Of a stretch of 32,000 bases of DNA, positions 8-20,154 are shown one piece after another. The stretch is from positions 900,001 to 932,000 of the forward strand of contig CP104013.1 of assembly GCA_025839675.1 (NCBI GenBank), read 5' to 3'. A model generated the notes under the pieces. That model was not told the DNA's origin. It made no database searches and saw only the letters and a list, made by a program, of their open reading frames with translations. This DNA comes from Candidatus Lokiarchaeum ossiferum. GTDB lineage: Archaea > Asgardarchaeota > Lokiarchaeia > Sigyniarchaeales > Promethearchaeaceae. Numbering within the stretch: position 1 is the stretch's first letter; each line of letters starts with the position of its first letter. The translations under genes were made by a program, and so were the position numbers.

Positions 8-898
8 ATGATACCCTTCATAGATATTTTGAAAAGTAAAAATTTTCCTCAACCCATTTTGCCTATGCCTTGCAGGATAGATAAGGTTGTTAATGGAAGT
101 ACCTCTTTAACCATGCTACCAAAAAAACCAATCTCGATCGAATATGATTCCAAGATCATCACTTATGATTTTCATAAATTGTATTTATCTTTCTACCAAA
201 ATATCATCTATTACGCCAAAATCAAATACAAAGAAATGACTCAACGAGAACTCCCAATTTCATTAGCAAAAAAATGGTGGGTTCAGTCGAAACCTCTTAA
301 AGGTCAGATTAAGAATTATTCTCAAGATATAGATTTTCTTTTAACAAGCTACTTAAAGGCTTACATTAATTATTTACAATCTAATAACCAAGAAGAAGCC
401 TTATTGGAATATTGCAAAGAAATTATTGACTATTGTCAAAAAAAAATTGAAGAAAACTCAATAACCTTCAATTTTAAGGAAAAAGAAATTACAAAAAGAA
501 TGTATCGAACCAAAAAGAAGTACCATTTTCCAGATATTTGGGAGTTTGATGTTTTAAGTGAAGAAACACAAAAAACAACAAGAAAAGCTTTCATCCCAGT
601 GATGATTTACGATGATCTACTTGAAAGCTTTCTTTATAATAAAATGAATTTAGAAAAGAAAATGGGGAACCTTCAGGAAGAATATGGGGAAACCGAAGAA
701 AATGAAGATGAGATTGACGTGAATTCTATAGAATTTGTAGGTTTCAAAGAGTTAGAAGATATGAAAATTATAGTTCATATTCCAACGAATCAATACAAAG
801 AAAATGATGTTGATTTAAAAAATATTATTAATAAAATTGAGTTTAGCGATATCTTTATTGATGTAGAGGAAGAAGACGATGATTTCTTCAATATCTAA
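8..898 (+). CDS. hypothetical protein with acidic C-terminal tail; possibly 5'-truncated by the window edge
   Basis: The frame has no stop between position 2 and the ATG at 8, so the true start may lie upstream. Lys/Glu-rich with no motif I recognise. Ends in ...VEEEDDDFFNI. Confidence 0.45.
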   Translation: MIPFIDILKSKNFPQPILPMPCRIDKVVNGSTSLTMLPKKPISIEYDSKIITYDFHKLYLSFYQNIIYYAKIKYKEMTQRELPISLAKKWWVQSKPLKGQIKNYSQDIDFLLTSYLKAYINYLQSNNQEEALLEYCKEIIDYCQKKIEENSITFNFKEKEITKRMYRTKKKYHFPDIWEFDVLSEETQKTTRKAFIPVMIYDDLLESFLYNKMNLEKKMGNLQEEYGETEENEDEIDVNSIEFVGFKELEDMKIIVHIPTNQYKENDVDLKNIINKIEFSDIFIDVEEEDDDFFNI

Positions 899-1017: not shown

Positions 1018-2979
1018 TTACAGATTTTGAATTTCCAAAATTTGTTTTTCGATTTTTTGTTTTAGTAATTCTAATCTTCCAACCTTCTGTTCATAATCTT
1101 CATCTGAAAGATCTCCAGTAATGTTTTCCATCTCAAGATCTAACATTTTGTTGTTTACATTCGCTAATTTAATTTTTAATTCAGTTACCATTTGTACAGA
1201 AGATTTAGTTTCCGTTGAAATTGACTCAGCTTTAACCGGAGGTGAAACATCGTGTTTATTAGAACTTTGGTCGAGATGTGGAATCGGGGGCGGAATAACA
1301 GCAGAAACAGATGCATTTGAAGAAGATGGTTCGTTTATGGGAGATAATATACTCGGACTTATACCCAAAGTAGCTTTTGAAAGCGGATTTTCTGGAGATT
1401 TGGGGGTTTCTTTTTTTGCTTGTAATTTGTTTAATAACATCCCCAATTGGTCCAGTTGTTGAGGGGGCTGAGATGCACCATCAGGAAGAACGGTTGATTT
1501 TGGTGCTGGAGGAACTTGTACAGAAGGCTTCGGAGGCACCTGAACGGGTGGTGCGGGAGGGACTTGCACGGAAGATGCTGGAGGAACTTGTACAGATGGC
1601 TTCGGAGGCACCTGAACGGGTGCTGCGGGAGGAACCTGCACGGAAGGTGCTGGAGGAACTTGTACAGATGGCTTCGGAGGCACCTGAACGGGTGCTGCGG
1701 GAGGAACCTGCACGGAAGGTGCTGGAGGAACTTGTACAGAAGGTTTCGGAGGCACCTGAACGGGTGCTGCGGGAGGAACCTGCACGGAAGGTGCTGGAGG
1801 AACTTGTACAGAAGGTTTCGGAGGCACCTGAACGGGTGCTGCGGGAGGAACCTGCACGGAAGGTGCTGGAGGAACTTGTACAGATGGCTTCGGAGCGTTT
1901 TGAATTGGTGTAGATGAAGAATCTTGGCTTGCAGGTGCCATTTGCTTTAGTATGGAGCGTATTTTCTGAGATTTTTCATTAAAATCTTGACTTACTCGAT
2001 CGTCCCCTAATTCCAAGCTCAAATCAGCAAGCGTTTCAAATAATTTTACAGCAGCAAGAAAGTCTCCCCCTTCAAGAGCTTGTTCAGCTTCTTTTAATTT
2101 TCTATCGCGCTCTAATAGAGGTTTTAATAATGGTGAAACTTCCCCAGACATTTCTAAAATGTCAGCAATAATTGTAATCATTTTATCGCGATTATCCGGA
2201 TCTGTAGCAATCATAGAATAAGCTTTGATATTCAAGTGTCTTTCAATATCTGCAATGGGAAGTGCATCTGGCAAATCTTGTTTGTTTCCAATTGCAGCTG
2301 CATGAGCATAAGGAGCTTCTTTTTTAATTAATTCAACAAAATATTTACTCTTTTCACAATTTTCCAGTGAAGAATCAGTGATCAATAACACTGCATCGGA
2401 ACCTTTAATGAAATTATTCCACAAGAAACTAAATTGTTCCTGTCCTGCAAAATCCCATAAATGGAAATGCAGTTTTCCAATTTTTATTGTTCCAATATCT
2501 CCTGTAATCGTAGGTACATGTTCAACAGGAATATCTTCAGCAGTGATCAAACGAGTGATGGTAGTTTTCCCAACTCCTGAAAAACCCACTAAAGAAATTT
2601 TCGGCCGAAGATTCTTATGAATTAATTCAATTGTGGGATCAAAAATCTCAAAAGTATCTTCATCGAGTTTTTCATCCATAATTGATCCAAACATATCCAT
2701 AAATTCTTTTCTGCACCGGGATAATTCTTTTTTCACGTTTGCAAATTTATCAGATAAATCAGAAACGAAGAAGAAAATTACGTTTTGTTCTGGAACGGAT
2801 AAATAATTAATACGATATTTAAAGAAATCATGAAATTGAGTGTTTTCGGTTGCAATCTTAAAAGCTTCAGAAGATATTTGTTTATAGGCTTGATTGAATC
2901 CCTCATCATCTAACCCTTTTCCAAAATCTCGTTTGTAAATAATTTCACTATCTTTTGTTATGTAAACTTGTCGTAGCAT
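1018..2979 (-). CDS. multidomain Ras-superfamily small GTPase: N-terminal longin/roadblock-like domain + G domain + helical region + 16 Pro-rich octads + C-terminal coiled coil
   Basis: ATG at 2979 with GTGAGG about 14 nt upstream. G1 GFSGVGKT, switch-I Thr in PTITGD, G3 WDFAGQE, G4 GNKQD (Rab/Ras-like). About 125 aa of alternating beta/alpha pattern precede the P-loop. Then (VQVPPxxx)x16 and a heptad-rich tail ending ...KQILEIQNL. No C-terminal Cys for prenylation. Confidence 0.85.
   Translation of the reverse strand: MLRQVYITKDSEIIYKRDFGKGLDDEGFNQAYKQISSEAFKIATENTQFHDFFKYRINYLSVPEQNVIFFFVSDLSDKFANVKKELSRCRKEFMDMFGSIMDEKLDEDTFEIFDPTIELIHKNLRPKISLVGFSGVGKTTITRLITAEDIPVEHVPTITGDIGTIKIGKLHFHLWDFAGQEQFSFLWNNFIKGSDAVLLITDSSLENCEKSKYFVELIKKEAPYAHAAAIGNKQDLPDALPIADIERHLNIKAYSMIATDPDNRDKMITIIADILEMSGEVSPLLKPLLERDRKLKEAEQALEGGDFLAAVKLFETLADLSLELGDDRVSQDFNEKSQKIRSILKQMAPASQDSSSTPIQNAPKPSVQVPPAPSVQVPPAAPVQVPPKPSVQVPPAPSVQVPPAAPVQVPPKPSVQVPPAPSVQVPPAAPVQVPPKPSVQVPPAPSVQVPPAAPVQVPPKPSVQVPPASSVQVPPAPPVQVPPKPSVQVPPAPKSTVLPDGASQPPQQLDQLGMLLNKLQAKKETPKSPENPLSKATLGISPSILSPINEPSSSNASVSAVIPPPIPHLDQSSNKHDVSPPVKAESISTETKSSVQMVTELKIKLANVNNKMLDLEMENITGDLSDEDYEQKVGRLELLKQKIEKQILEIQNL
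1502..1895. repeat. 72-bp tandem repeat, about 5.5 copies (24-bp sub-period), inside the GTPase CDS
   Basis: Units start at 1508, 1580, 1652, 1724, 1796 and 1868 (partial). Units 1580 and 1652 are identical, as are 1724 and 1796; the two pairs differ at 2 nt. One unit is 44/72 G+C by hand count, in an AT-rich window. On the minus strand it encodes PKPSVQVPPAPSVQVPPAAPVQVP. Confidence 0.95.
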
Positions 2980-3075
2980 GAATTTGATGCCTCACTCGGT
3001 ATACTGTTTCTTCCTAGTAACAATTAATATATAGTTAATATAAATGATTTTATCCCCTTAATAGTTTCAGAGCGA

Positions 3076-3591
3076 TTATTTTTTTGCGAGATTTTTGATT
3101 AAATGTTTGAAAATAGGAAAGCGATCTTCATTGATTTGATCTTGGTTTTCATGGGTTAATTCTAAGAATTCTTCATGCAAATCCAAATTCTCTATTTTAA
3201 ATGATATAGGATTATTTGTAGATCTATCCAATGTGGAACTAATCCGTGTTATACTGGGCATATATTGAGCTAAATCTACATCTTTTGATACATAACTCAT
3301 TAAATAAACGTGCTTTGCGAATGTTATTATGATATTGGCATCTTCCGATTCTAAAACTAAGCTACTAATGCTTTTCACCCCTAGTTCATCACCAACTTTA
3401 TCCCTTTGGAGAATTAGATCCCATAATCGAGGAGAAATTAATTTCCCTTTTTGAAATTTTTGAATTTTTGAAGCTAAAATAATACCGTATTTATTTATAA
3501 TGGCAGTATTGGTCCCTATCATATCAAAAATTTGCTGGACAACACTTTTCCAATTTATTTCTTCCGTTGTAGCCGATGTTTGCTGAGTCAT
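3076..3591 (-). CDS. Roadblock/LC7 (MglB-like) domain protein
   Basis: 171 aa, lying 96 bp upstream of the GTPase on the same strand. The pattern WKSVVQQIFDMIGTNTAIINKYGIILAS ... SLVLESEDANIIITFAKHVYLMSYVS matches the Roadblock alpha-beta-beta-alpha-beta-beta-beta layout by eye. A C-terminal ~50-aa extension follows. Confidence 0.5.
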   Translation of the reverse strand: MTQQTSATTEEINWKSVVQQIFDMIGTNTAIINKYGIILASKIQKFQKGKLISPRLWDLILQRDKVGDELGVKSISSLVLESEDANIIITFAKHVYLMSYVSKDVDLAQYMPSITRISSTLDRSTNNPISFKIENLDLHEEFLELTHENQDQINEDRFPIFKHLIKNLAKK

Positions 3592-3806
3592 TTTTTTTCT
3601 TGAATCGCTAATTTAATTATTTTAATAAGTAATATTTGGTTTCAGACCATATATATTTTTAACATGTTAATTTAATTATCCCTCAAAAGTCTAATGGGAA
3701 TGCTTTTTTACTTTTAAAAAACAATTAATTAATTAGAAAGAAAATCAAGAATATATTATAAAAAAAATTGCTTCATTACATATTAGCATGGATTTAGTGA
3801 CTAAAA

Positions 3807-5165
3807 ATGGGAGATAAAGATTTAGAAAACATTATTTCTTCTATTGGACAAGAAGAAATGGCAGTAGCTCAAAAACAAGCTCAAATAGATCGCCTTAAAC
3901 AGTTAATTATTAAGCAAAAAACAGAGATGGCGGAACAACAGAAATTGATTCAAGAATTGCAAGGACGAATAAATAATATGTATGATTTGCCTGCAGATAT
4001 CGAAGAATTAAAACGAATGGTTGGAGAGATGAGGGCTGAAAATAATCATAAAGATCAACAATTACAAATGGCTTATGGAACTATTGCTGAAAAGGATGCT
4101 GAATTAAAAACAACCAAAGTCCAGATAGAACCATTATCGCGCAATCTTGATACGTACATCGCACAAGTTGGAGAATTAAAAGCGAAATTAATTGAACAAA
4201 ATGGACTTATCAATATGAAGCAAAAAGAAATTGATGAACTCCAAATGGCCAACGAGGCTACAAACCAAAATTTAGAAAAAATGGAAATGGAATTTGCCCA
4301 ACGGGTACAAGCGAGATTGAAACAATTCATGGATACTGAAGATCAGTATCAAAGCCGAATTTCTAAAATGGAAGCAGAATTCGAAGAACGCACCAAGAAA
4401 ATGCAAGAACAATATAGTGTACAAGTTGATAAAGCTCAAGGATCAGTTCAAGACACGTATGAGCAATTAGCATCATTGAAAAGTGATTTAGCTCAAAAAG
4501 ATGTTAAGATCACTATTTTGAGTCGAGAGCTTCAGGAAGCGAATACTTCGATTGTCCAAGAAAAATCAACTAACGAAGCTTTACAGAAAGAAATTAATTC
4601 AATTAAAGATAATCTTCGAGAAAAAGATATCGTATCTGCAGATTTTAAGAGTAAAATCGAAGCGGAATTAAAAAACGAGTTATTTACCGCAAAATCAGAA
4701 TTTACTCGAAAAATTAATGAGCTTGAATCTCAATTATTAGATAAAAATCTTAAAATTCAGGAACTCACCCAAAACAGCCAAAGCGCAGATAAACGTGTGA
4801 TCGAAATCAAAGCCCATTTAGACGAATTAATGGCAAAAAACAATGAAATCTCAACAAAATACCAAGAAATGTTGGAAAAATCTGAAAATCAAGATAAAAC
4901 AAACGCTGATTTAATCGCATTTAAGAAGAAAAATGAAGGAATTGCAAAAAATATGGAAGGATTAATGCAATTATTCGAAGAAGAACCTCTATTCCGGACT
5001 TATTTATTAGTAAGAGATGTTGGTGCAATGGATCCGGGTTTATTAAAGAATGCCTTAGGTGTTCCAAGTATTACGGTGCAAAAATATATTGAGAAGTTTA
5101 TGAAAGTGGATCTTTTTGAAAAGGTGGGTGAAAAGATTACTCTTAAACATAAACTTGCTAATTAG
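3807..5165 (+). CDS. long coiled-coil protein with C-terminal winged-helix (wHTH-like) domain
   Basis: 452 aa. About 380 aa are Gln/Glu/Lys-rich heptad-like sequence with no Pro or Gly breaks. The C-terminus LFRTYLLVRDVGAMDPGLLKNALGVPSITVQKYIEKFMKVDLFEKVGEKITLK reads as H1-H2-H3-wing. It is divergent from the Roadblock gene across a 215-bp AT-rich spacer. Confidence 0.7.
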   Translation: MGDKDLENIISSIGQEEMAVAQKQAQIDRLKQLIIKQKTEMAEQQKLIQELQGRINNMYDLPADIEELKRMVGEMRAENNHKDQQLQMAYGTIAEKDAELKTTKVQIEPLSRNLDTYIAQVGELKAKLIEQNGLINMKQKEIDELQMANEATNQNLEKMEMEFAQRVQARLKQFMDTEDQYQSRISKMEAEFEERTKKMQEQYSVQVDKAQGSVQDTYEQLASLKSDLAQKDVKITILSRELQEANTSIVQEKSTNEALQKEINSIKDNLREKDIVSADFKSKIEAELKNELFTAKSEFTRKINELESQLLDKNLKIQELTQNSQSADKRVIEIKAHLDELMAKNNEISTKYQEMLEKSENQDKTNADLIAFKKKNEGIAKNMEGLMQLFEEEPLFRTYLLVRDVGAMDPGLLKNALGVPSITVQKYIEKFMKVDLFEKVGEKITLKHKLAN

Positions 5166-5169
5166 GGAA

Positions 5170-5211
5170 TTTTTTTTTTATTAATTTGAGTTTTTTTGTA
5201 AACTTTTTTTT
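5170..5211 (+). terminator. oligo-T termination tracts after the coiled-coil gene
   Basis: T10 (5170-5179), T7 (5191-5197) and T8 (5204-5211) lie directly after the stop at 5165. Archaeal RNA polymerase terminates at oligo-T. Confidence 0.45.
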
Positions 5212-5370
5212 CGAGAATCAATCTTTTTCCAATTTAACTCTTTATCATGATCATATCAAGTTTTTCATGATATTTGAACCAATTATTTACAAAATCTTAA
5301 AAGTTAGTAGAGCTGAGTTATCATTATAGAATTATTGAATCGCAATATACTAAGTGGAGTAAAAAAAAAA

Positions 5371-5748
5371 ATGCCTCAAGGAATTTTAGTATTACGCTGG
5401 GATAATGAAATAGGACCAGTTTTAATCGCAAGCTACCCTGAAAACTTAAAGGTTACCAACAATCTTTTAACTCAAGTTTATTCGGCACACAGATATTCAT
5501 CTTTAACACCGGGTTTCAGTTCCCTGACATTAAAAAATAATAAAGTTGTTTCGTTCTTTTCCGGCTTGGGGGAAAAATATGTCGAAGTAGAAAACTATGT
5601 TGTTGCCTTATTATTACGTCGAGATGAAAGTGTGGCAAAATATAGAGGCATTTTGAATAAAATTGCAGCGAATATTTTAGGAAACATTGAAAACAACAAA
5701 TATAAAAAATTGATTCCAAAACTATATCAAGATCTATCCCGTGTATAG
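5371..5748 (+). CDS. small longin/roadblock-like protein (125 aa)
   Basis: I prefer the ATG at 5371 (GGAG about 12 nt upstream) over the TTG at 5335 used in the ORF track. MPQGILVLRWDNEIGPVLIASYP ... VVSFFSG ... YVVALLLRRDE ... YRGILNKIAANIL gives a beta-beta-alpha-beta-beta-beta-alpha pattern like the N-domains of the two GTPases. Confidence 0.45.
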   Translation: MPQGILVLRWDNEIGPVLIASYPENLKVTNNLLTQVYSAHRYSSLTPGFSSLTLKNNKVVSFFSGLGEKYVEVENYVVALLLRRDESVAKYRGILNKIAANILGNIENNKYKKLIPKLYQDLSRV

Positions 5749-6072
5749 ATTTGTTTTACTGAAAATAATCTCGATCCATTTTTTCCAATTTCTTAAAAAT
5801 CATTCAAGTTGAATAGGAGCTTTTGAATCTACTTTAACATCATAAAATGCAATTCCCTTCACATAATATTGTTTTTTTTTGATCTAAATTGATCCAATTT
5901 TGAAGAAAAATTAAGAAATCTTTAGAATTAATCTTCCAACTTTTAAGATTTTCGGTATATGTATATCTAAAAATATCTTAGTTAGAGATAAACTGCTAAA
6001 ATTGAGAGTGATTGTCATTTCCGAAATGATTACTAAATTTTTTTTATAGTGCATGATTATCATATTTTATAT

Positions 6073-7617
6073 ATGACACGTAAAACGTTGAAAAAACTAG
6101 TACCTTTGATAATTCTATTTATAGTAATATATTCCATAAATTTTGGACCTATTAAAGAACAAAGATCCCGTAATAATACATCAATTGAACAGCCATCACC
6201 TTCAGAAATGGTTGGAACAATCCTTAATCCGCAATATTTTTGGATAGACCATCCTTTCGAAATTTCCTTTCGGATTGGGAATGAATATTTATTAAATTTT
6301 ACACCTTATTTCGCAGGAGAAACCCCCCTAAGATGGGAAATCCACCACCAATTAAATGGAAGTCGAATATTAAATGGAACCTTCTCAAATGCAACATTAA
6401 TAAGTCAAAATATCGCACCTAACTTTACGATTGATGGATTTTATTACATTAATTTGTGTTTTTATACTACAAATCACTTGTTCAACTCTTCGATCTCCGT
6501 AGATGTGCAAGAACGTCCTTCTGGACAGTATTTTTATACCAATCCACATGAAGTTGAAAATCAAATTCTCATAAATCAACCTTCTCAAATGGAATGGATT
6601 CCATATTTTGCAGGATATTCTGCTCAAGGTTGGGAACTTTTTGCAGGACAAATGGTTGAAGGAAATGACCCACAGCATCAATTAATTTACAGCGGTGATT
6701 ATTATGATGGGGTGCCGTTTGTGTTAGATATTGGAAATATTTTTGACACTCCTGATAATTATGAACTTATATTAATTTTTGATACAGGGGAAGATCAGGT
6801 ATTTTCATACTATTTCTATTACGAAGTTTTAGCAGAAGAATATTCCACTTACTTTGAAATAACTCATAATTCAAACATTCAGTTTAACTTAGGACAAATT
6901 CAGATTTTAGAGTACACACCTCATTTTTCGAACTATACTCCCTGGAGATATGAATTCTCTTATATTGATACTCATTCGGTCCTCGATATGGGAAGCTATG
7001 TAAATGCTGGATTTATTCAATATAATATTTCTCAGTGGTTTGAAAATCCTGGAAATTATACATTTAAAATGACTTTCTTGACCAAAGAGCTGAGATCCTT
7101 CACTGCAAACACAACGGTTGAGATATTTGAACAGTTAGAAGAAGATTCCACCCCTCCAGAGTGGAATGATCCAATAAACAATATTACAATCTTTGTAGGA
7201 ACTCCAATTAATATTAATTTAAATTTCAGTGATTCTGGGGGTATTGCGAGCATAAGTACCAATGATTCAAGCCATATTTCAATAAATGAAACTGGTTTTA
7301 TTCGCAATAGTTCAACTTGGAATGTTGGATCATTTGATATTAACATCTCAATCGAAGATTACAGTGGCAACATTCTAATAATCACCATTTCAGTATTCGT
7401 TCTCTCAACAAATGTAACTGAAACAACTTCTACATCAACAACAACTACTACTGAAACGACAGAAGAACCAACAAATTCGACCAGTAGTAAATCAGAGGGG
7501 AATGAATCTTCAAGTTTCTCGAATATTCCCGGATTTAAATCCCAAATCCTTGGTTTATCTAGTCTATTCATTCTTTTTAAGATATACAGAAAAAACAAAA
7601 AAGATAAATTGCATTAA
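6073..7617 (+). CDS. cell-surface glycoprotein with signal/anchor N-terminus, three internal ~110-aa repeats, Ig/cadherin-like domain, Thr-rich linker and PGF-CTERM-like tail
   Basis: I prefer the ATG at 6073 (MTRKTLKKLVPLIILFIVIY) over the GTG at 6049. The recurring motif is TPYFAGETPLRWE / IPYFAGYSAQGWE / TPHFSNYTPWRYE. I counted about 21 N-x-S/T sequons by eye. The linker is TETTSTSTTTTTETTEEPTNSTSS. The tail is PGFKSQILGLSSLFILFKIYRKNKK. Confidence 0.75.
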   Translation: MTRKTLKKLVPLIILFIVIYSINFGPIKEQRSRNNTSIEQPSPSEMVGTILNPQYFWIDHPFEISFRIGNEYLLNFTPYFAGETPLRWEIHHQLNGSRILNGTFSNATLISQNIAPNFTIDGFYYINLCFYTTNHLFNSSISVDVQERPSGQYFYTNPHEVENQILINQPSQMEWIPYFAGYSAQGWELFAGQMVEGNDPQHQLIYSGDYYDGVPFVLDIGNIFDTPDNYELILIFDTGEDQVFSYYFYYEVLAEEYSTYFEITHNSNIQFNLGQIQILEYTPHFSNYTPWRYEFSYIDTHSVLDMGSYVNAGFIQYNISQWFENPGNYTFKMTFLTKELRSFTANTTVEIFEQLEEDSTPPEWNDPINNITIFVGTPININLNFSDSGGIASISTNDSSHISINETGFIRNSSTWNVGSFDINISIEDYSGNILIITISVFVLSTNVTETTSTSTTTTTETTEEPTNSTSSKSEGNESSSFSNIPGFKSQILGLSSLFILFKIYRKNKKDKLH

Positions 7618-7690
7618 GGAAGTTTTACTACTTTTTTTTACTTTTGCTTTTTACAGCATGAGAATTTATATTTCCACTTTGGAAGGATGA

Positions 7691-8305
7691 CTACATTGTT
7701 TGATATTTCATCCCTTTCTCAAAGGCTTTCAAATTGACTTCATGATATTTTGAGGGAATATTCAATTTGATAGATTCCTTAAGATGATCTTCAGAAAATG
7801 GCATGTTGGAATTTCTTGCGAGAGCACCTAATAAAATGACATTCATTGATTGACTTAATCCCAATTCAGTACTATCTTTAAAGGCATCTACAAGAACAAC
7901 ATTTTTTGTCCAATTTTTCAACTCTTGAGTTAATTCTGAGATGGAAGGAGATTTGACTTTTCCATTTGATATCCTCACAGTTAAAGGTTGAAAAATAGTC
8001 GAATTGACAACGACAACTCCATCCTTCTTTAACCGTGGTAGGGATCTTACGGATTCCAATGCTTCCAAAGCAATAAGTACGTCTGCTTCCCCATCGGAAC
8101 AAATGGGTGATTCTGTAGGATCAAAACCAATTGCTAAATCAGACACAACAACCCCCCCTCGTTGAGCTAAGCCATGAGTTTCCATTGTCATCACGGTGAG
8201 TCCAGCTAATTGAGCAGCCCGTGCAATTATTCGTGAGGTCGCCCCAATGCCTTGACCCCCCATACCAGTAATGTGTACTTTTAATTGTTTATTCATATCT
8301 CTCAC
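7691..8305 (-). CDS. iorB: indolepyruvate:ferredoxin oxidoreductase, beta subunit
   Basis: About 200 aa of the pyruvate/ketoisovalerate oxidoreductase gamma-type domain (ITGMGGQGIGATS...HGLAQRGG). The start lies 1 nt after the iorA stop. The two-subunit alpha+beta layout is typical of IOR. Confidence 0.8.
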   Translation of the reverse strand: MRDMNKQLKVHITGMGGQGIGATSRIIARAAQLAGLTVMTMETHGLAQRGGVVVSDLAIGFDPTESPICSDGEADVLIALEALESVRSLPRLKKDGVVVVNSTIFQPLTVRISNGKVKSPSISELTQELKNWTKNVVLVDAFKDSTELGLSQSMNVILLGALARNSNMPFSEDHLKESIKLNIPSKYHEVNLKAFEKGMKYQTM

Positions 8306-8306
8306 C

Positions 8307-10241
8307 TTAAATTCGAGTAAAATCCTCCATTTGTTTTATCGGTTTCTCTTTCATCGGACAAGTTTGAACACAGCACCCACATCCAATGCATAATGAAGTA
8401 TTTATTTCTGCTTGACCATTAATTTCTTCTATAGCTGGACAGGCAAATTCAAGCAAGCATTTCTTTATATTTCTACAAATATCATGATCGATATAGTATG
8501 GATTTGCTAAAGTCCCCGCTTTTCTCTCGGCCGTGCTCCTCATTAAGGCACAAGGTTCTTCTTGAATAACCACCGCAAGAGTCTTTTCAGTTTTAGCAAA
8601 ATTAAAAGCATCAACAAGGGCATTTTCAAGCAACTCCTCATTATAAGCCGGCACTCGCTTAATAAATTTCACCCCCCATGCAGATAAAGTATCATCCATA
8701 CTAATGGTTTTTGCATCAGCATATTTATGAGATAACTTCGCTCCCCGTGACTTTTTCCCAGTGTTTGGATTTGGTTGATGCCCAGTCATCGCAGTAATTC
8801 CATTATCCATGATCATCAACACTTGCATGTGCTTATTGAATATTGTATTCACAATCCCAGGCATACCTGCGTGGAAGAAGGTTGAATCACCGAGGAACGA
8901 CATAATTGGAACATCTTTAAGTGCTAAAGACATCCCAGATGCAGAGGGCACTCCAGAGCCCATACTATAAAGTACTTTTCCTTGTTCATAGGGGGGGAGA
9001 TAACCTAAAGTATAGCATCCAATATCAGCCATAGAATATCCCTTCAGTTTTTTCATTATTTTAGTCGCGACATGAAATGATGTTCGATGTCCGCACCCTG
9101 GGCATAGCTGAGGAGGTCTTTTAGGAACATCCAAAGTTGGCGTATATATTTGGGAAGGATTATCTATGCCTAGAATATCGGCCAGCATTTGAACCAAACG
9201 ACTGGGGGAATATTCTGAAATCATTAGATCTATAAAATTCTTTTCTTTCATTTTGCCAATAATTTCCACATTGGATATTTGATTGTCAAAAAGAGCAATT
9301 TTTATAGCCGATTCGAAAATTGGATCTAATTCTTCAAGTATCTTGATTTTTTTATACTTTTTTATGAAGGCAAGTATTTTTTCAATCGGCAAAGGGTAAA
9401 CAATCCCAATTTTTAGAATTGCAACACTTACACCTAACAGTCGAAGAGCGCTTTTAAGAGCAGCATAAGCATGACCACTGGTAATAATTCCAATTTGAGG
9501 AGATTCATCCCCATAGATTTCTTCAGTTAAAAGTTCTCCAGAGTTTGCCAAAGTTTTCCATTTTTCTAAATTTTCTAATGCTTTTCTTCTTAGAGGAGCT
9601 AAAGTAGCAGGCAATGGAATATAGCCACCTTCAAGATTTGGATCAAATTTTCTTGGGATTTCACTTACATGTTTGGGTCCAAACTTTACTACACCAGTCT
9701 GATGACAAATTCGAGTCGTAGAACGGATTACAACAGGCATTCTCCATTCTTGAGAATATTTCATGGCAAAACAGAAGAAATCTTTTGCTTCTTGCGCATT
9801 AGAGGGTTCCAACATAGGAATTTTTCCCAACTTTGCATAGTGACGATTGTCTTGTTCATTTTGAGATGAATGGGGACCTGGATCATCCCCTAAAATTATC
9901 ACCAATCCTCCCGGTAAAGTATATTTACTTAATTGAACAAAAGAATCGGATGCAACATTCAATCCCACACTTTTCATGAACATGCACGATGGGGCTCCGC
10001 CAATTGAAGCCGTTGCAGCTATTTCTAAAGCGACTTTCTCATTTGTCGAAAATTCAAAATAAATATCACTTTCATCTTGTATTTGTGATAATCGAACCCC
10101 CATTTCACTTGTAGGAGATCCAGGATATGCTGTTGCCACTTTAACACCCGCTTCAATCATTCCCCGAACAAAAGCATCATTTCCTAATAGAATTTCTTGA
10201 TGGGGGGCATCCTTCAGAATTGAGAATTTATAATCAACCAT
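8307..10241 (-). CDS. iorA: indolepyruvate:ferredoxin oxidoreductase, alpha subunit (TPP- and 4Fe-4S-binding)
   Basis: 644 aa. TPP motif GDSTFFHAGMPGIVN...MDNGITAMTGHQ. C-terminal ferredoxin-like Cys motifs (CRNIKKC...CPAI, CIGCGCCVQTCP). SD-like TGAGGTCGA lies about 12 nt upstream. Confidence 0.85.
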   Translation of the reverse strand: MVDYKFSILKDAPHQEILLGNDAFVRGMIEAGVKVATAYPGSPTSEMGVRLSQIQDESDIYFEFSTNEKVALEIAATASIGGAPSCMFMKSVGLNVASDSFVQLSKYTLPGGLVIILGDDPGPHSSQNEQDNRHYAKLGKIPMLEPSNAQEAKDFFCFAMKYSQEWRMPVVIRSTTRICHQTGVVKFGPKHVSEIPRKFDPNLEGGYIPLPATLAPLRRKALENLEKWKTLANSGELLTEEIYGDESPQIGIITSGHAYAALKSALRLLGVSVAILKIGIVYPLPIEKILAFIKKYKKIKILEELDPIFESAIKIALFDNQISNVEIIGKMKEKNFIDLMISEYSPSRLVQMLADILGIDNPSQIYTPTLDVPKRPPQLCPGCGHRTSFHVATKIMKKLKGYSMADIGCYTLGYLPPYEQGKVLYSMGSGVPSASGMSLALKDVPIMSFLGDSTFFHAGMPGIVNTIFNKHMQVLMIMDNGITAMTGHQPNPNTGKKSRGAKLSHKYADAKTISMDDTLSAWGVKFIKRVPAYNEELLENALVDAFNFAKTEKTLAVVIQEEPCALMRSTAERKAGTLANPYYIDHDICRNIKKCLLEFACPAIEEINGQAEINTSLCIGCGCCVQTCPMKEKPIKQMEDFTRI

Positions 10242-17994: not shown

Positions 17995-20154
17995 ATGTTT
18001 GTTAATGTATGGTCTTTATGGCTTGTGTTACTTTCTGCTATCGTTTCACTTGTAGTAGCATTTCTTTTAAAAAAGAAAGTTAGCACAGCTGATCCAGGTA
18101 ATGAAGAAATGGTTAAGGTTCAAGGGTATATTCGAGATGGTGCTAACGCTTTTGTAAGGCGTCAGTATAAAACCTTAGCAATTTTCGTTGGTGGATTAGC
18201 GATTGTAGTCGGAATTATATACTATATTTATCCTATCGAAACTGAAGGTACAAATGTTAAGTGGTGGGTAATGGTATTATCGTTCATTGTAGGATCCTCT
18301 GCTTCAGCTTGGGCTGGGTGGTTAGGAATGAAAGTTGGTGTTGATGCTAATGCCAAAACTGCTCAAGCAGCGACCAAAGGATTAACTCCCGCCTTCGATG
18401 TTTCCTTCTTTGGAGGGGCAGTTATGGGTCTTATTGTCACTTCTGCTGCATTAGGTGGAGTTTGGTTACTTTATTATATTATTGGAGAACCGATAGTAAT
18501 TTTAGGATTTTCCTTCGGAGCTTCAACCATTGCACTTTTTGCTAAAGCCGGTGGTGGTATCTTTACCAAAACCGCCGATGTTGCCGCCGATTTAGTCGGT
18601 AAAATCGAATATTCCTTACCGGAAGATGATCCCCGCAATCCTGCCGCCGTGGCAGATAATGTTGGGGACAACGTTGGAGATATCGCCGGAATGGGTGCAG
18701 ATCTCTTTGATTCATATGTGGCTTCCATAATTGGAGCGATGTTGTTAGGTTATAGCGTATCTTATACAGGTCTTTTTGATTTAGCTAACGCAGATATTTT
18801 AGCATCTTTTCCTTTAGTTATTAGCGCAGCAGGACTATTTGCATCCATCGTAGGCATTTATGTAATCTCTAAAATGAAGAAAACTAGCCCTGGAAAGGCA
18901 CTTAATAGTGGCACATATCTTGCAGCAGCATTATTCATAGGCATTGGAGCATTATTTACTTTCCTCCTTACCACATCTAGCGGAATCGATACAAGTGGAA
19001 GTGGACGATTTGAAAATATGTCAGATAAATTATGGTTAAATTATGGAGCCGCAGCTTTTGGAGTTATCGCAGGAATTATTATTGGATTAACCACCGACTA
19101 TTATACCGATGATTCCAAACATCCTACCCAAGCCGTAGCCGAATCTTCCCAACAAGGCCATGCCTTGAATATCTTAACCGGATTTTCCTATGGGTTAATG
19201 AGTGTCGCACCTCCAACACTTGGAATTGTGGTCGTAATGGGAATTTCATATGCATTAGATGGAGTTATTGGTGTTGCTAGCGCATCCACAGGTATGCTTG
19301 CAATTGTAGGAACGATCGTTGCAAATGATGCTTATGGTCCTATTGTAGACAATGCCCGTGGTATTGCCGAACAAGGTGGGCTTGAAGAAGATGTTATTGC
19401 CTTGTGTGATAAATTGGATTCCGCGGGAAATACCGCAAAAGCAGTTACCAAAGGATTTTCCATTGGGGCCGCTGCTTTAACCGTATTAGCCTTATTATAT
19501 TCTTTCATGGAAGAGGCAAAACTTCTTTTAGTAGATACTGATTTTGTGACAGGACTCGATGTTCTTTCTGTTGATGTTATGATTGGACTTTTATTAGGAG
19601 TTATGATTCCGTGTATCTATTCGGCCGTTTTAATCTTTGCAGTGGATAAGAATGCCCAAGTTATGGTCAAAGAAATTCGACGCCAATTTGAAGAACATCC
19701 AGGTATTTTGGAAGGTACCGAAGCAGCCGATTTTGAAAAATGTATCGATATTGCAACTGTAGGTTCCCTAAAAGCATTGGTTGTTCCTTCATTATTATCA
19801 GTTGTTGCACCAATTGTTGTAGGAGTTTTATTCGGAGTACGTGCTTTAGGAGCTTTCTTGGCAGGAACTATCCTCATCGGATTCATCTTTGGATTACTCT
19901 TATCCAACGCAGGTGGAACATGGGACAATGCCAAGAAATACATTGAAGATGGTAACTTAGGTGGTAAAGGCACATTGGCTCACGCCGCTGCCGTGACCGG
20001 AGATACTGTCGGAGATCCGTTCAAGGATACCGCCGGACCGGCAATTAATACCTTAATTTGTGTGATGTCCCTTACCGCTAGTATGTTCCTTCGATTATTT
20101 GTGGGTATAAACAGTGGAGAAGGCTTAATTCAATTAGGTACATTAATAGCATAA
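17995..20154 (+). CDS. hppA: membrane-bound proton-translocating pyrophosphatase, K+-independent-type signature (copy 1)
   Basis: 719 aa with multiple TM spans. Hallmarks are GGGIFTKTADVAADLVGKIE, DNVGDNVGDIAGMGADLF and VTGDTVGDPFKDTAGP. GNTAKAVTKG carries the Lys and Thr that mark K+-independent enzymes. Confidence 0.9.
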   Translation: MFVNVWSLWLVLLSAIVSLVVAFLLKKKVSTADPGNEEMVKVQGYIRDGANAFVRRQYKTLAIFVGGLAIVVGIIYYIYPIETEGTNVKWWVMVLSFIVGSSASAWAGWLGMKVGVDANAKTAQAATKGLTPAFDVSFFGGAVMGLIVTSAALGGVWLLYYIIGEPIVILGFSFGASTIALFAKAGGGIFTKTADVAADLVGKIEYSLPEDDPRNPAAVADNVGDNVGDIAGMGADLFDSYVASIIGAMLLGYSVSYTGLFDLANADILASFPLVISAAGLFASIVGIYVISKMKKTSPGKALNSGTYLAAALFIGIGALFTFLLTTSSGIDTSGSGRFENMSDKLWLNYGAAAFGVIAGIIIGLTTDYYTDDSKHPTQAVAESSQQGHALNILTGFSYGLMSVAPPTLGIVVVMGISYALDGVIGVASASTGMLAIVGTIVANDAYGPIVDNARGIAEQGGLEEDVIALCDKLDSAGNTAKAVTKGFSIGAAALTVLALLYSFMEEAKLLLVDTDFVTGLDVLSVDVMIGLLLGVMIPCIYSAVLIFAVDKNAQVMVKEIRRQFEEHPGILEGTEAADFEKCIDIATVGSLKALVVPSLLSVVAPIVVGVLFGVRALGAFLAGTILIGFIFGLLLSNAGGTWDNAKKYIEDGNLGGKGTLAHAAAVTGDTVGDPFKDTAGPAINTLICVMSLTASMFLRLFVGINSGEGLIQLGTLIA
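18535..18713. repeat. 179-bp tract 100% identical to the reverse complement of 24515-24693 (hppA copy 2)
   Basis: Checked base by base. The flanking positions 18534 and 18714 differ between the copies. Confidence 0.9.
19079..19184. repeat. 106-bp tract 100% identical to the reverse complement of 24071-24176
   Basis: Checked base by base. The flanking positions differ between the copies. Confidence 0.9.
19900..20042. repeat. 143-bp tract 100% identical to the reverse complement of 23219-23361
   Basis: Checked base by base. A further ~50 bp upstream differs at only 2 silent sites. Confidence 0.9.

Follow-up and report, generated by a model that had tools for sequence, protein, structure and literature searches.

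The four-gene divergent locus that we analysed in Candidatus Lokiarchaeum ossiferum is made up of two independently conserved gene pairs and is not one ancestral unit, as the pairs are conserved separately and lie apart in most Lokiarchaeia. The locus is contained in a window of 32,000 nucleotides, i.e., the whole stretch of DNA that was analysed, to which all coordinates refer. The first pair is an operon, in which a gene for a divergent Roadblock protein is followed by that of a multidomain Arf-like GTPase; back to back with it, the second pair encodes a long coiled-coil protein with a C-terminal winged-helix-like domain and a highly conserved 125-aa longin (the mini-longin). We propose that the Roadblock protein and the longin domain of the GTPase set the state of this enzyme, and that the mini-longin is a GTPase regulator with the neighbouring GTPase as its likely client, a reading to which we give an even chance.

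The four open reading frames lie at 1018-2979 (minus strand, 653 aa), 3076-3591 (minus, 171 aa), 3807-5165 (plus, 452 aa), and 5335-5748 (plus, 137 aa). Together with the motifs GFSGVGKT, WDFAGQE, and GNKQD, a Pro-rich array, and an AT-rich divergent spacer of 215 bp (3592..3806), they are present as described in the initial annotation of this DNA. The last frame opens with TTG, but translation almost certainly starts at the ATG at 5371, for a protein of 125 aa: all homologues begin with MPxG, the publicly annotated protein has this length, and a GGAG precedes the ATG by 12 nt. The four-gene observation is well beyond chance, as orthologues of each protein are conserved and the same gene order is found in many genomes. 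It is confirmed, and its interpretation as a self-contained module of regulator, switch, and effector is partly supported. A 296-aa frame of unknown family (8..898, plus strand), convergent with the GTPase gene, is a possible conserved neighbour whose membership of the system is not established. Homologues with 42-43% identity flank the 3' end of the GTPase gene in L001 and L005/6; in L015 the homologue lies roughly 1.5 kb past this end, and the L003, L009, and L012 loci have none.

The Roadblock protein and the multidomain GTPase

The GTPase, NEF87_000729 (1018..2979, minus strand), has the database name 'ADP-ribosylation factor-like protein'. It contains a longin domain, a G domain, a TPR-like hairpin, a Pro-rich spacer, and a C-terminal coiled coil, in this order, and the architecture is kept in 12 orthologues. 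The G domain (aa 123-296; 2092..2613, minus), which carries GFSGVGKT, WDFAGQE, and NKQD, is 75-90% identical between orthologues. Residues 123-253 pass the Pfam thresholds for Arf (66.4 bits, cutoff 22.3), Roc, and Ras, and the best solved relatives are Arf1 and Arl8 (Arf1 E 1e-14); the domain, first described as Rab/Ras-like, should therefore be called Arf-family-like.

The N-terminal domain (aa 1-100; 2680..2979, minus) adopts a beta-beta-alpha-beta-beta-beta-alpha topology in an AF2 model built on four sequences, with a mean pLDDT of 67 and blocks of 71-87 across aa 1-80. Its best Foldseek match is the VAMP7 longin (2vx8_A, E 1.2e-4, TMq 0.63); AP2 sigma is also among the top matches at about 1e-4, and SRX (1nrj_A, E 4.4e-3, rank 30) and MglB appear as well. 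With moderate confidence, the domain is predicted to be a longin closest to those of VAMP7 and the sigma-adaptins, in keeping with the longin-like fold first assigned to it.

Downstream of the G domain, a conserved block (aa 297-365; 1885..2091, minus) with weak TPR matches and one weak MIT match may form a helical hairpin, a single TPR-like or MIT-like unit. The Pro-rich spacer (1502..1895, minus) is a tandem repeat of 5.5 copies of a 72-bp unit (96% identity) and encodes five 24-aa PKPSVQVPPAPSVQVPPAAPVQVP units. Both the unit and the length of the spacer vary by genus, and in the distant L101 orthologue it is acidic; this segment is fast-evolving and hypervariable. The C-terminal helical or coiled-coil segment (aa 596-653; 1021..1194, minus), which includes LDLEMENITGDLSDEDYEQK, is kept in all long orthologues, L101 among them, and has a weak match to the Pfam CdvA coiled coil (E 0.15). 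As noted in the initial annotation, there is no prenylation Cys: the sequence ends in EIQNL. An N-terminal Gly and an N-terminal amphipathic helix are likewise absent from the GTPase, and its longin domain would stand in place of the membrane-binding N-terminal helix of Arf.

The Roadblock assignment of NEF87_000730 (171 aa; 3076..3591, minus) also stands, with the qualification that the protein is divergent and that Pfam Robl_LC7 does not match it. Its core spans about aa 14-125 and is followed by an extension ending in a conserved basic tail, RFPIFKHLIKNLAKK. When the family profile was compared with 177,635 solved-structure sequences, the best match was a Roadblock protein of MK-D1 (7yh1, E 0.0036), which remained the best with a broader alignment (E 0.0012). 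A second MK-D1 Roadblock, 9jue, ranked second (E 0.014), and fourth with the broader alignment (E 0.11). The UniRef name is Roadblock/LAMTOR2.

A Roadblock homologue lies immediately upstream of the GTPase gene on the same strand in 36 of the 44 GTPase-anchored metagenome loci, an adjacency that holds down to 27-35% Roadblock identity, and the same order is seen in all Roadblock-anchored loci. The two genes are separated by 96 bp in the window and by 12-155 bp in 33 other loci; the gap of 336 bp in L094 lies beside an apparently broken GTPase reading frame. By analogy with MglB-MglA and with Ragulator/longin platforms, on which this proposal is modelled, the Roadblock protein, probably as a dimer, may form with the GTPase's own longin a platform that sets its nucleotide state.

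The coiled-coil/winged-helix protein and the mini-longin

NEF87_000731 (452 aa; 3807..5165, plus strand) had been described as an uninterrupted coiled coil ending in a winged helix. The coiled coil is indeed long, but it contains two prolines (P62 and P109). The C-terminal domain (about aa 392-452; 4980-5162, plus) has consistent matches to winged helix-turn-helix profiles (MntR E 0.03, TrmB, HTH_24, and ArsR-like), but all of them are sub-threshold, and Pfam and NCBIfam return only coiled-coil noise for the whole protein. In NCBI and UniRef it is named 'Chromosome partition protein Smc'. We rejected this identity: the protein has neither an ATPase head nor a hinge, and scores about 36 bits against NCBIfam SMC models with cut-offs of 567-729, so the name is a coiled-coil artefact.

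The name and the best C-terminal matches, all to DNA-binding regulators, could nevertheless be taken to mean that the protein is a DNA-binding or chromosome scaffold and that the cluster acts in chromosome or division organisation or in transcription, the GTPase being a polarity or positioning switch and unconnected with membrane biology. Bacteria do possess such a polarity module in MglA/MglB, a Ras-like GTPase with a Roadblock GAP. However, apart from the missing head and hinge and the sub-threshold matches, winged helices also serve as protein-binding modules, as in ESCRT-II and PCI proteins, and the G domain is Arf-like, not MglA-like; we consider this explanation quite improbable. In the reading that we prefer, the protein would be a scaffold that carries the mini-longin, and a role as tether or effector, as first suggested, may be envisaged.

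The mini-longin, NEF87_000732 (5371..5748, plus strand), yields an AF2 model with a pLDDT of 89.2 and a pTM of 0.84, which bears out the longin fold first proposed for it. Its Foldseek list is led by the GATOR1 NPRL2/NPRL3 longins (4e-4, TMq up to 0.71), the SEA complex, FLCN-FNIP2, and Lst4, and the protein is predicted with high confidence to be a longin closest to those of NPRL2/NPRL3 and FLCN. It is 64-96% identical among Lokiarchaeia. The turn between beta1 and beta2 contains the motif W10-D11-N12-E13-I14-G15-P16 (5398..5418, plus), in which W, D, N, G, and P are invariant, and by sequence comparison the spacing equals that of W33-D34-N-I-L-G38-P39 in human C9orf72. The GP motif has been reported in FLCN, NPRL2, SMCR8, C9orf72, and one class of Asgard longins, and to be absent from FNIP2, NPRL3, and non-GAP longins such as those of TRAPP, adaptin, and DENND (PMC12290439). 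In hhalign, the broad mini-longin family is colinear with C9orf72 over 78 columns, at an E of 0.0064 and a probability of 6%. The pattern of this protein had also been said to resemble the GTPase N-domain. Both are longins in topology in their models, but no sequence or profile similarity between them was detectable, and the two belong to separate longin subtypes.

We take the arginine finger of NPRL2 to correspond to the beta4-beta5 loop of the mini-longin, where no Arg or Lys is conserved; the mini-longin alone therefore cannot be a complete GAP. The lack of this residue would also suit a GEF-type platform of the Mon1-Ccz1, Fuzzy-Inturned, or TRAPP-like kind that activates the GTPase, with the Roadblock protein providing an opposing GAP-like activity as in MglB. 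The UniRef name 'FUZ/MON1/HPS1 first Longin domain-containing protein', which refers to GEF-type longins, and the presence of DENND1A (rank 27) and Fuzzy-Inturned (rank 46) among the Foldseek matches point in this direction, as does the statement in PMC10933270 that longin platforms are mostly GEFs. However, the best fold matches are all to GAP-complex longins, and the GP motif is reported to be specific to such longins; a GEF platform thus seems unlikely. We favour a longin-type regulator of a small GTPase, and, given the missing arginine, the mini-longin would most likely be a subunit of a GAP complex of the C9orf72 kind.

Conservation and juxtaposition of the two pairs

In the second pair, a coiled-coil/winged-helix homologue adjoins the mini-longin in 75 of 80 loci from Lokiarchaeial GTDB species. 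Moreover, P0153 (429 aa), which is encoded on two independent contigs, joins a mini-type longin and the coiled-coil/winged-helix protein in one natural fusion (BLASTP 2e-14). T-runs 3' of the coiled-coil gene suggest that the mini-longin may be transcribed separately.

Each pair is thus widely conserved, but the four-gene cluster proposed as one unit is confined to a single lineage. Of the 80 species loci, only 7 have the GTPase and Roadblock genes beside the mini-longin; of the 44 GTPase-anchored loci, only 4 have the coiled-coil and/or mini-longin genes beside the GTPase. In the remainder (73 and 40 loci, respectively), more than 8-10 kb separates the pairs. Only in the Lokiarchaeum/Promethearchaeum/Harpocratesius lineage are the pairs juxtaposed, and there the genes occur in three orders (the window, L001, L003, L005, L009, L010, L012 from MK-D1, L013, L014, and L015; further, L019, L020, L090, L091, L094, L096, L098, and L099).

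As the pairs are far apart in most Lokiarchaeia, their juxtaposition could be an inherited accident: the Roadblock and longin-GTPase genes would be autonomous, and the second pair would serve another GTPase or process. Several observations fit. The three gene orders can be related by single local inversions of one block; in MK-D1 two extra ORFs sit between the coiled-coil and mini-longin genes; in L003 the coiled-coil gene lies beside the GTPase pair with the mini-longin elsewhere on the contig; and a check of 149 family representatives found no fusion of a mini-type longin to a G domain. However, in at least three named genera the adjacency has outlasted divergence of the proteins to 44-56% identity, with different flanking genes. 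Furthermore, a protein of about 350 aa with a 'WD-G longin' and a winged helix adjoins the GTPase family in L003, L026, L124, L125, and L136, an independent second association involving a related member of the longin superfamily. We regard mere neighbourhood as a serious possibility that falls somewhat short of even. In our preferred reading, the neighbouring longin-Arf GTPase would most likely be the client of the mini-longin in the lineage in which the pairs adjoin.

Comparison with known systems

Longin-GTPase fusions, Asgard Roadblock-GTPase operons, and NPRL2-like or GP-motif Asgard longins have already been published. In the literature searched, the pairings of a Roadblock gene with a longin-Arf-GTPase gene and of a coiled-coil/winged-helix gene with a mini-longin gene were not found. 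Of the 74 small GTPases of the MK-D1 genome, 26 have Roadblock or longin domains (PMC10933270; PMC11914678; 10.1101/2020.10.19.343400). Tran et al. (2024, PMC10933270) state that, as a rule, the GTPase genes of MK-D1 do not share operons with genes for Roadblock or longin proteins. As far as these accounts go (Tran 2024, PMC10933270; Zhu 2025, PMC11914678; Liu, 10.1101/2020.10.19.343400), the present GTPase, whose MK-D1 orthologue is L012, resembles the fused Asgard enzymes in having an N-terminal longin on an Arf/Rag-like G domain in a Lokiarchaeon, and goes beyond them in its TPR-like hairpin, hypervariable Pro-rich spacer, C-terminal coiled coil, and tight Roadblock operon.

An Asgard operon of a LAMTOR1-like Roadblock protein, a Rab-like GTPase, and a DENN-domain protein, described by Liu et al. 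(10.1101/2020.10.19.343400), was read there as a FLCN/Ragulator-like module. Both systems have a conserved operon of Roadblock-superfamily and small-GTPase genes with a longin/DENN-type regulator nearby. In the present locus, however, the Arf-like GTPase carries a longin itself, a DENN domain is lacking, and the free longin is a stand-alone 125-aa protein whose partner is a coiled-coil/winged-helix protein. The system occurs throughout the Lokiarchaeia, whereas that operon occurs across most Asgard archaea.

Among known systems, the eukaryotic longin GAP complexes, i.e., GATOR1 (NPRL2/NPRL3), FLCN-FNIP, and C9orf72-SMCR8-WDR41, give the mini-longin its best fold matches. It also has the GP motif in the beta1-beta2 turn and a WD motif with the spacing of C9orf72; no sequence-level homology to the eukaryotic GAP-complex longins was found. 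Those complexes have Rag or Arf GTPases as clients, and the GTPase next to the mini-longin is Arf/Rag-like. In contrast to them, the mini-longin chain has no DENN or other C-terminal domain and no Arg at the presumed finger position.

As in MglA/MglB, Roadblock and small-GTPase genes share an operon, and MglB is among the fold matches of the N-domain; unlike that system, the G domain is Arf-like and not MglA-like, the Roadblock protein is extended at its C-terminus by 45 aa that include a basic tail, and the GTPase is a 653-aa multidomain protein. The pairing of a longin with an Arf-family G domain recalls SRX of SR-alpha bound to the Arf-like SR-beta, whereas here both are in one chain that has neither an SRP-type NG domain nor a transmembrane anchor, and the neighbourhood shows no SRP context. 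Each part of the locus is therefore of a kind already known, and together they offer, in a cultured Asgard archaeon, a concrete pairing of a GTPase with candidate regulators for experiments.

Two conserved gene pairs

The locus is made up of two gene pairs. On the minus strand, a 171-aa Roadblock-like protein (3076-3591, NEF87_000730) precedes a 653-aa longin-Arf-like GTPase (1018-2979, NEF87_000729), and on the plus strand a 452-aa coiled-coil protein (3807-5165, NEF87_000731) precedes a 125-aa mini-longin (5371-5748, NEF87_000732). The open reading frames, the G motifs, the 215-bp spacer and the repeat array in the window sequence are all as the initial annotation gave them. Public records hold all four proteins as NEF87_000729-000732, and the 171-aa product matches NEF87_000730 of Candidatus Lokiarchaeum ossiferum with 100% identity. 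The start of the fourth gene is most likely the ATG at 5371, giving 125 aa, rather than the TTG at 5335.

Surveys of homologous loci anchored on the mini-longin, the GTPase and the Roadblock gene gave adjacencies from which we conclude that the two pairs are conserved independently of each other. The coiled-coil/winged-helix and mini-longin pair is conserved in nearly all sampled Lokiarchaeial species: in the mini-longin-anchored survey (one genome for each GTDB species; of 127 loci found, 80 were kept), the coiled-coil/winged-helix homologue lies directly beside the mini-longin in 75 loci, and the five that lack this neighbor comprise at most three real cases and two contig ends. Roadblock and longin-GTPase genes are also present in only 7 of the 80, all in a clade with a mini-longin at least 76% identical to that of the window. 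The operon in which Roadblock is followed by the longin-Arf GTPase is likewise conserved. Among the 44 metagenome loci recovered with the GTPase N-domain as query, the gene directly upstream, on the same strand, is a Roadblock homologue in 36, with a measured gap of 12-155 bp in 33 of these and of 336 bp in L094, beside an apparently broken GTPase reading frame; the adjacency holds down to 27-35% Roadblock identity. Coiled-coil and/or mini-longin genes occur near the GTPase in only four of the 44. In the Roadblock-anchored loci (L001, L003, L005, L090 and L091), the GTPase gene is always downstream and the coiled-coil gene always divergent.

The initial annotation had treated the four genes as one divergent unit. 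The pairs are joined only in the lineage of Lokiarchaeum, Promethearchaeum (P. syntrophicum MK-D1) and Harpocratesius; their juxtaposition is lineage-restricted. Three gene orders were seen: mini-longin and coiled-coil genes reading away from Roadblock and GTPase; Roadblock, GTPase, coiled-coil and mini-longin genes all in one direction; and the first arrangement with the mini-longin gene turned to converge on the coiled-coil gene. These orders interconvert by single inversions, and their flanking genes differ. The main rival explanation is that the two pairs are functionally unrelated neighbors, and we give it about a third of the weight. A search for proteins in which a mini-type longin is fused to a G domain returned none among 149 family representatives. 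Within the second pair, P0153 (429 aa, present on two independent contigs) unites a mini-type longin and the coiled-coil/winged-helix protein naturally in one chain, and because of this fusion the two proteins probably form a physical complex. In MK-D1, an insertion of two open reading frames (420 and 343 aa) separates the coiled-coil gene from the mini-longin gene (7536-9829 of locus L012).

Transcription features of the locus, as read from its sequence, offer hints, none of them decisive. The 96-bp gap between the Roadblock and GTPase genes holds no T-run and corresponds to 12-60 bp in most other genomes; the missing T-run and the short gaps are consistent with an operon, although such a reading is not decisive. 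T-runs lie 3' of the coiled-coil gene, the mini-longin gene has its own GGAG and ATG, and many TATA-like strings occur in the AT-rich 215-bp spacer.

The remaining window consists of housekeeping genes, including an indolepyruvate/pyruvate:ferredoxin oxidoreductase-like pair, NadA, a thioredoxin-reductase-like gene and carbamoyl-phosphate synthase. Two full-length H+-pyrophosphatase paralogues (17995-20154 on the plus and 23122-25230 on the minus strand; Pfam H_PPase, E about 1e-222 each) are encoded on opposite strands with 3 kb between them, a stretch that contains an aldehyde:ferredoxin oxidoreductase and a ferredoxin gene. A 522-aa open reading frame (6049-7617, plus strand) combines a hydrophobic segment at the N-terminus with numerous N-x-S/T sites and a linker rich in Thr and Ser. 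Its C-terminus, '...NIPGFKSQILGLSSLFILFKIYRKNKKDKLH', consists of PGF, a transmembrane segment and a basic tail and looks like a PGF-CTERM/archaeosortase-type sorting signal; no NCBIfam or Pfam model, the PGF-CTERM model included, matched the protein. The syntenic loci L001 and L005 lack this gene and the oxidoreductase genes at 7691-10241; the distance there from NadA to the mini-longin is about 1 kb at most and includes one or two small open reading frames. Finally, a 296-aa open reading frame without a family match (8-898, plus strand) has homologues of 42-43% identity (L001 8565-9605, L005 10536-11363 and L015 4615-5250), which in several genera stand close to, or directly at, the 3' end of the GTPase gene and in others are missing. 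This frame may represent a fifth gene of the association, or may merely reflect retained synteny.

The Roadblock and longin-Arf-like GTPase pair

The G1-G5 motifs of the GTPase are complete (GFSGVGKT, WDFAGQE, NKQD), and Pfam Arf, Roc and Ras as well as TIGR00231 score above threshold at aa 123-269, Arf (PF00025) reaching 66.4 bits against a cutoff of 22.3. The protein had been described as Rab/Ras-like; however, as the nearest solved relatives of its G domain are Arf1 and Arl8 (E 1e-14), it is better regarded as Arf-family-like. It may also have a Rag-like affinity, since Gtr1_RagA scores 19.8 bits, just under the cutoff of 22. Whereas Rag GTPases carry a G domain followed by a C-terminal Roadblock, the additional domain here is a longin, and N-terminal; the family alignment contains no Roadblock-like domain C-terminal to the G domain. 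Nor was a membrane-binding N-terminal amphipathic helix, with or without Gly2 myristoylation, found in the GTPase, the N-terminus of which (MLRQVYIT...) forms beta1 of the predicted longin domain. Longin N-termini on Asgard Arfs, and longin-GTPase fusions in Lokiarchaeia, are already on record (PMC10933270; PMC11914678; 10.1101/2020.10.19.343400).

A search with the N-domain only gave just three partial proteins, and its AF2 model, built from four sequences only, is therefore shallow. Nevertheless, the elements of the model (mean pLDDT 67; 71-87 in blocks over aa 1-80) come in longin order, and its best fold matches are the longins of VAMP7 and SYBL1 together with AP2 sigma (E about 1e-4, TMq 0.63), followed at lower rank by SRX, TRAPP, LAMTOR and MglB; topology and top matches thus agree with the longin assignment proposed initially. 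An alignment of 13 orthologues and paralogues revealed a fixed domain order: the ~100-aa N-domain leads through a linker helix to the G domain, after which come a helical hairpin that is conserved, a low-complexity spacer that is hypervariable and, at the C-terminus, a helical segment that is again conserved. The G domain is 75-90% identical across orthologues. The hairpin gives generic TPR-like matches and one weak MIT match; the latter was too little to identify it as an MIT domain, and we retain the label TPR-like hairpin. The spacer, which joins the hairpin to the C-terminal coil, is encoded in L. ossiferum by near-identical 72-bp DNA repeats (1502-1895) and is Pro-rich, and its repeat units elsewhere are PAPKTSVTPP in Harpocratesius and PPKPPVQAP in Promethearchaeum; in L101 the spacer is an acidic, Glu-rich stretch. 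Such fast evolution among the orthologues of L001, L012, L015 and L101 suggests that the length or flexibility of the spacer alone is under selection.

The Roadblock/LC7-like character assigned to the 171-aa protein appears to hold in divergent form. Pfam Robl_LC7 does not recognize the protein itself and matches one of 22 family members (E 0.24), and the weak Pfam match seen most often in the family is to the CodY GAF-like domain. The family profile, however, has as its top match among 177,635 solved-structure sequences the MK-D1 Roadblock 7yh1 (E 0.0036, or 0.0012 with a broader alignment), and a second MK-D1 Roadblock, 9jue, follows with E 0.014 (0.11 with the broader alignment). The alignments are colinear over 66-92 residues, a profile alignment spanning aa 29-121, and the UniRef name is Roadblock/LAMTOR2 domain-containing. 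On these profile matches we accept the protein as a divergent Roadblock. It is also extended by 45 aa at the C-terminus, and this extension ends in a basic tail that is conserved, R-x-P-I-F-K-x-L-I-x-x-x-x-K-K. A membrane-anchoring amphipathic helix in this tail is unconvincing, a bare possibility at best, with a hydrophobic moment of just 0.38 and a net charge of +5.

The coiled-coil protein and the WD/GP longin

The coiled-coil protein is rich in E, K, Q and L, has two prolines in its 393 residues of coiled coil, shows heptad periodicity in 270 of 360 windows, and is coiled coil throughout apart from a C-terminal domain of ~60 aa. Its database name, "Smc", is a coiled-coil artefact: NCBIfam SMC models, with cut-offs of 729 and 567 bits, give it just 36, and the protein lacks the ABC ATPase head halves and the hinge of an SMC and has no ATPase Pfam domain. 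The coiled coil of the initial annotation is upheld, while the putative terminal winged helix has only matches that are mutually consistent yet sub-threshold, including the MntR winged HTH (E 0.03) for the last ~60 residues and, for single family members, TrmB (0.004) and HTH_24 (0.01).

The longin nature of the mini-longin is well borne out by an AF2 model with pLDDT 89.2, pTM 0.84 and canonical topology (strands E and helices H: E4-11, E15-22, H30-41, E48-53, E57-63, E76-83, H89-104, H111-122). The best solved-structure matches are the NPRL2 and NPRL3 longins of GATOR1 (E 4e-4, TMq up to 0.71), and the next are AP5 sigma, DENND10, the yeast SEA complex, FLCN-FNIP2 and Lst4. Neither Pfam, run for 31 members, nor profile searches of solved structures with narrow and broad alignments detected sequence homology to known longins; the tie to these proteins runs through fold and motif alone. 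The proposed resemblance between the mini-longin and the GTPase N-domain is likewise limited to the fold, because BLASTP and hhalign found no direct similarity among the mini-longin, the N-domain and the Roadblock protein.

Conservation of the mini-longin is unusually high, with 64-70% identity across the class and 84-96% between genera in which the Roadblock, coiled-coil and GTPase proteins are 44-56% identical. The residues invariant in 31 orthologues include W10, D11, N12, G15 and P16 at the beta1-beta2 turn. A GP motif at this same turn has been described in FLCN, NPRL2, SMCR8 and C9orf72 and in one Asgard longin class, but is absent from FNIP2, NPRL3 and non-GAP longins; W33-D34 and G38-P39 of C9orf72 are reported to be essential or conserved, and the catalytic arginine finger is said to adjoin the motif in space (Traffic 2025; PMC12290439). 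The mini-longin thus possesses the GP motif of GAP-type longins (G15-P16), and the invariant W10-D11 stand five residues before it, with a spacing equal to that of C9orf72 (R-W-D-N-E-I-G-P, as compared with Y-W-D-N-I-L-G-P in PDB 6lt0_C). In hhalign comparisons with C9orf72, the narrow mini-longin profile aligned the motif alone, and a broad family profile gave 78 colinear columns over beta1-beta5 with E 0.0064 at a probability of only 6%. The arginine finger of NPRL2 type would fall in the beta4-beta5 loop, presumably aa 64-75 of the mini-longin. No Arg or Lys is conserved there in the 31 orthologues (consensus SGxGExxIxVENY), and the invariant R83-R84 stand at the far end of beta5. On that placement, the lack of a conserved Arg makes the mini-longin resemble the non-catalytic, WD-bearing C9orf72 subunit.

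A full-database profile search yielded 272 cluster representatives of the mini-longin superfamily, with architectures that include ~350-390-aa proteins of longin plus winged-helix domains, di-longins with a C-terminal coil, and giant proteins. The wider superfamily keeps the W and the G, and W[DEN]xxxG[PA], with P or A after the Gly, occurs in only 21 of 78 members. Three proteins of 285-385 aa (P0152, P0154 and P0156) have two tandem WD-G-type longins and then a C-terminal coiled coil ending ...IRKYVSY. Relatives of ~350-370 aa carry at the N-terminus a WD-G longin that shares 22-26% identity with the mini-longin, and after it ArsR-like winged-helix domains. These relatives (L003 8894-9940; L026 15861-16964; L124 3833-4897; L125 6603-7667) adjoin the longin-GTPase family in L003, L026, L124, L125 and L136, and in L124 and L125 stand in place of the Roadblock gene. 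Liu et al. (10.1101/2020.10.19.343400) note that NPRL2-like longins are abundant in Asgard archaea, and the ~350-aa relatives may correspond to what those authors describe as 'NPRL2-like longin + C-terminal domain'. An NPRL2 identity was rejected, the profile matching solely ArsR-type winged helices. Separately, six contigs (L029, L031, L037, L044, L040 and L071) deposited as Odin-, Hod-, Thor- or Hermodarchaeota, or even as Nanopelagicaceae or Acidobacteriota bins, have a mini-longin 65-68% identical to that of the window and a typical Lokiarchaeial coiled-coil neighbor, and are probably mislabelled or mis-binned.

A candidate link between the pairs and known longin machines

Asgard genomes carry dozens of small GTPases, Roadblock proteins and longins, and according to Tran et al. 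2024 regulators cannot be matched to GTPases from genome layout and MK-D1 is generally without such Roadblock/longin-GTPase operons (PMC10933270). This locus gives two pairings conserved over the sampled Lokiarchaeial loci, plus a candidate link between them. Roadblock/longin and GTPase modules in Asgard archaea (PMC10933270; PMC11914678; 10.1101/2020.10.19.343400), NPRL2-like longins and a Roadblock-Rab-DENN operon (10.1101/2020.10.19.343400) and GP-motif longins (PMC12290439) have been published. In the literature searched, we found neither the Roadblock and longin-Arf operon, nor the extended GTPase architecture, nor the coiled-coil/winged-helix and WD/GP-longin pair, nor the juxtaposition of both pairs in the two cultured Lokiarchaeia.

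Within the first pair, Roadblock and the cis-longin would regulate the G domain, as MglB, Ragulator or SRX do. The mini-longin would be a GAP-complex-type regulator of a small GTPase, and its client may be the neighboring one. Going further, all four proteins might form a single archaeal complex in which the WD/GP longin pairs with the N-terminal longin of the GTPase, or with the Roadblock dimer, on the coiled-coil/winged-helix scaffold and switches the Arf/Rag-like GTPase; we consider this unlikely. As L. ossiferum and MK-D1 are both cultured and have all four genes, direct biochemical and cell-biological tests are feasible. The question of which GTPases partner the GP-motif, GAP-like Asgard longins, posed in PMC12290439, thereby becomes testable in cultured organisms, and the four-protein complex, if real, would identify such a client. 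A true link between the pairs would bear on the origin of eukaryotic Arf/Rag regulation by longin and Roadblock platforms. GAP-type longins have a DENN or NPRL2 C-terminal domain in the same chain, whereas the 125-aa mini-longin has nothing past the longin. If the four proteins do act as one complex, they would represent, in compact prokaryotic form, a precursor of GATOR1, FLCN-FNIP and C9orf72-SMCR8, the longin GAP machines of the eukaryotic lysosome, combined with a Ragulator-like Roadblock platform.
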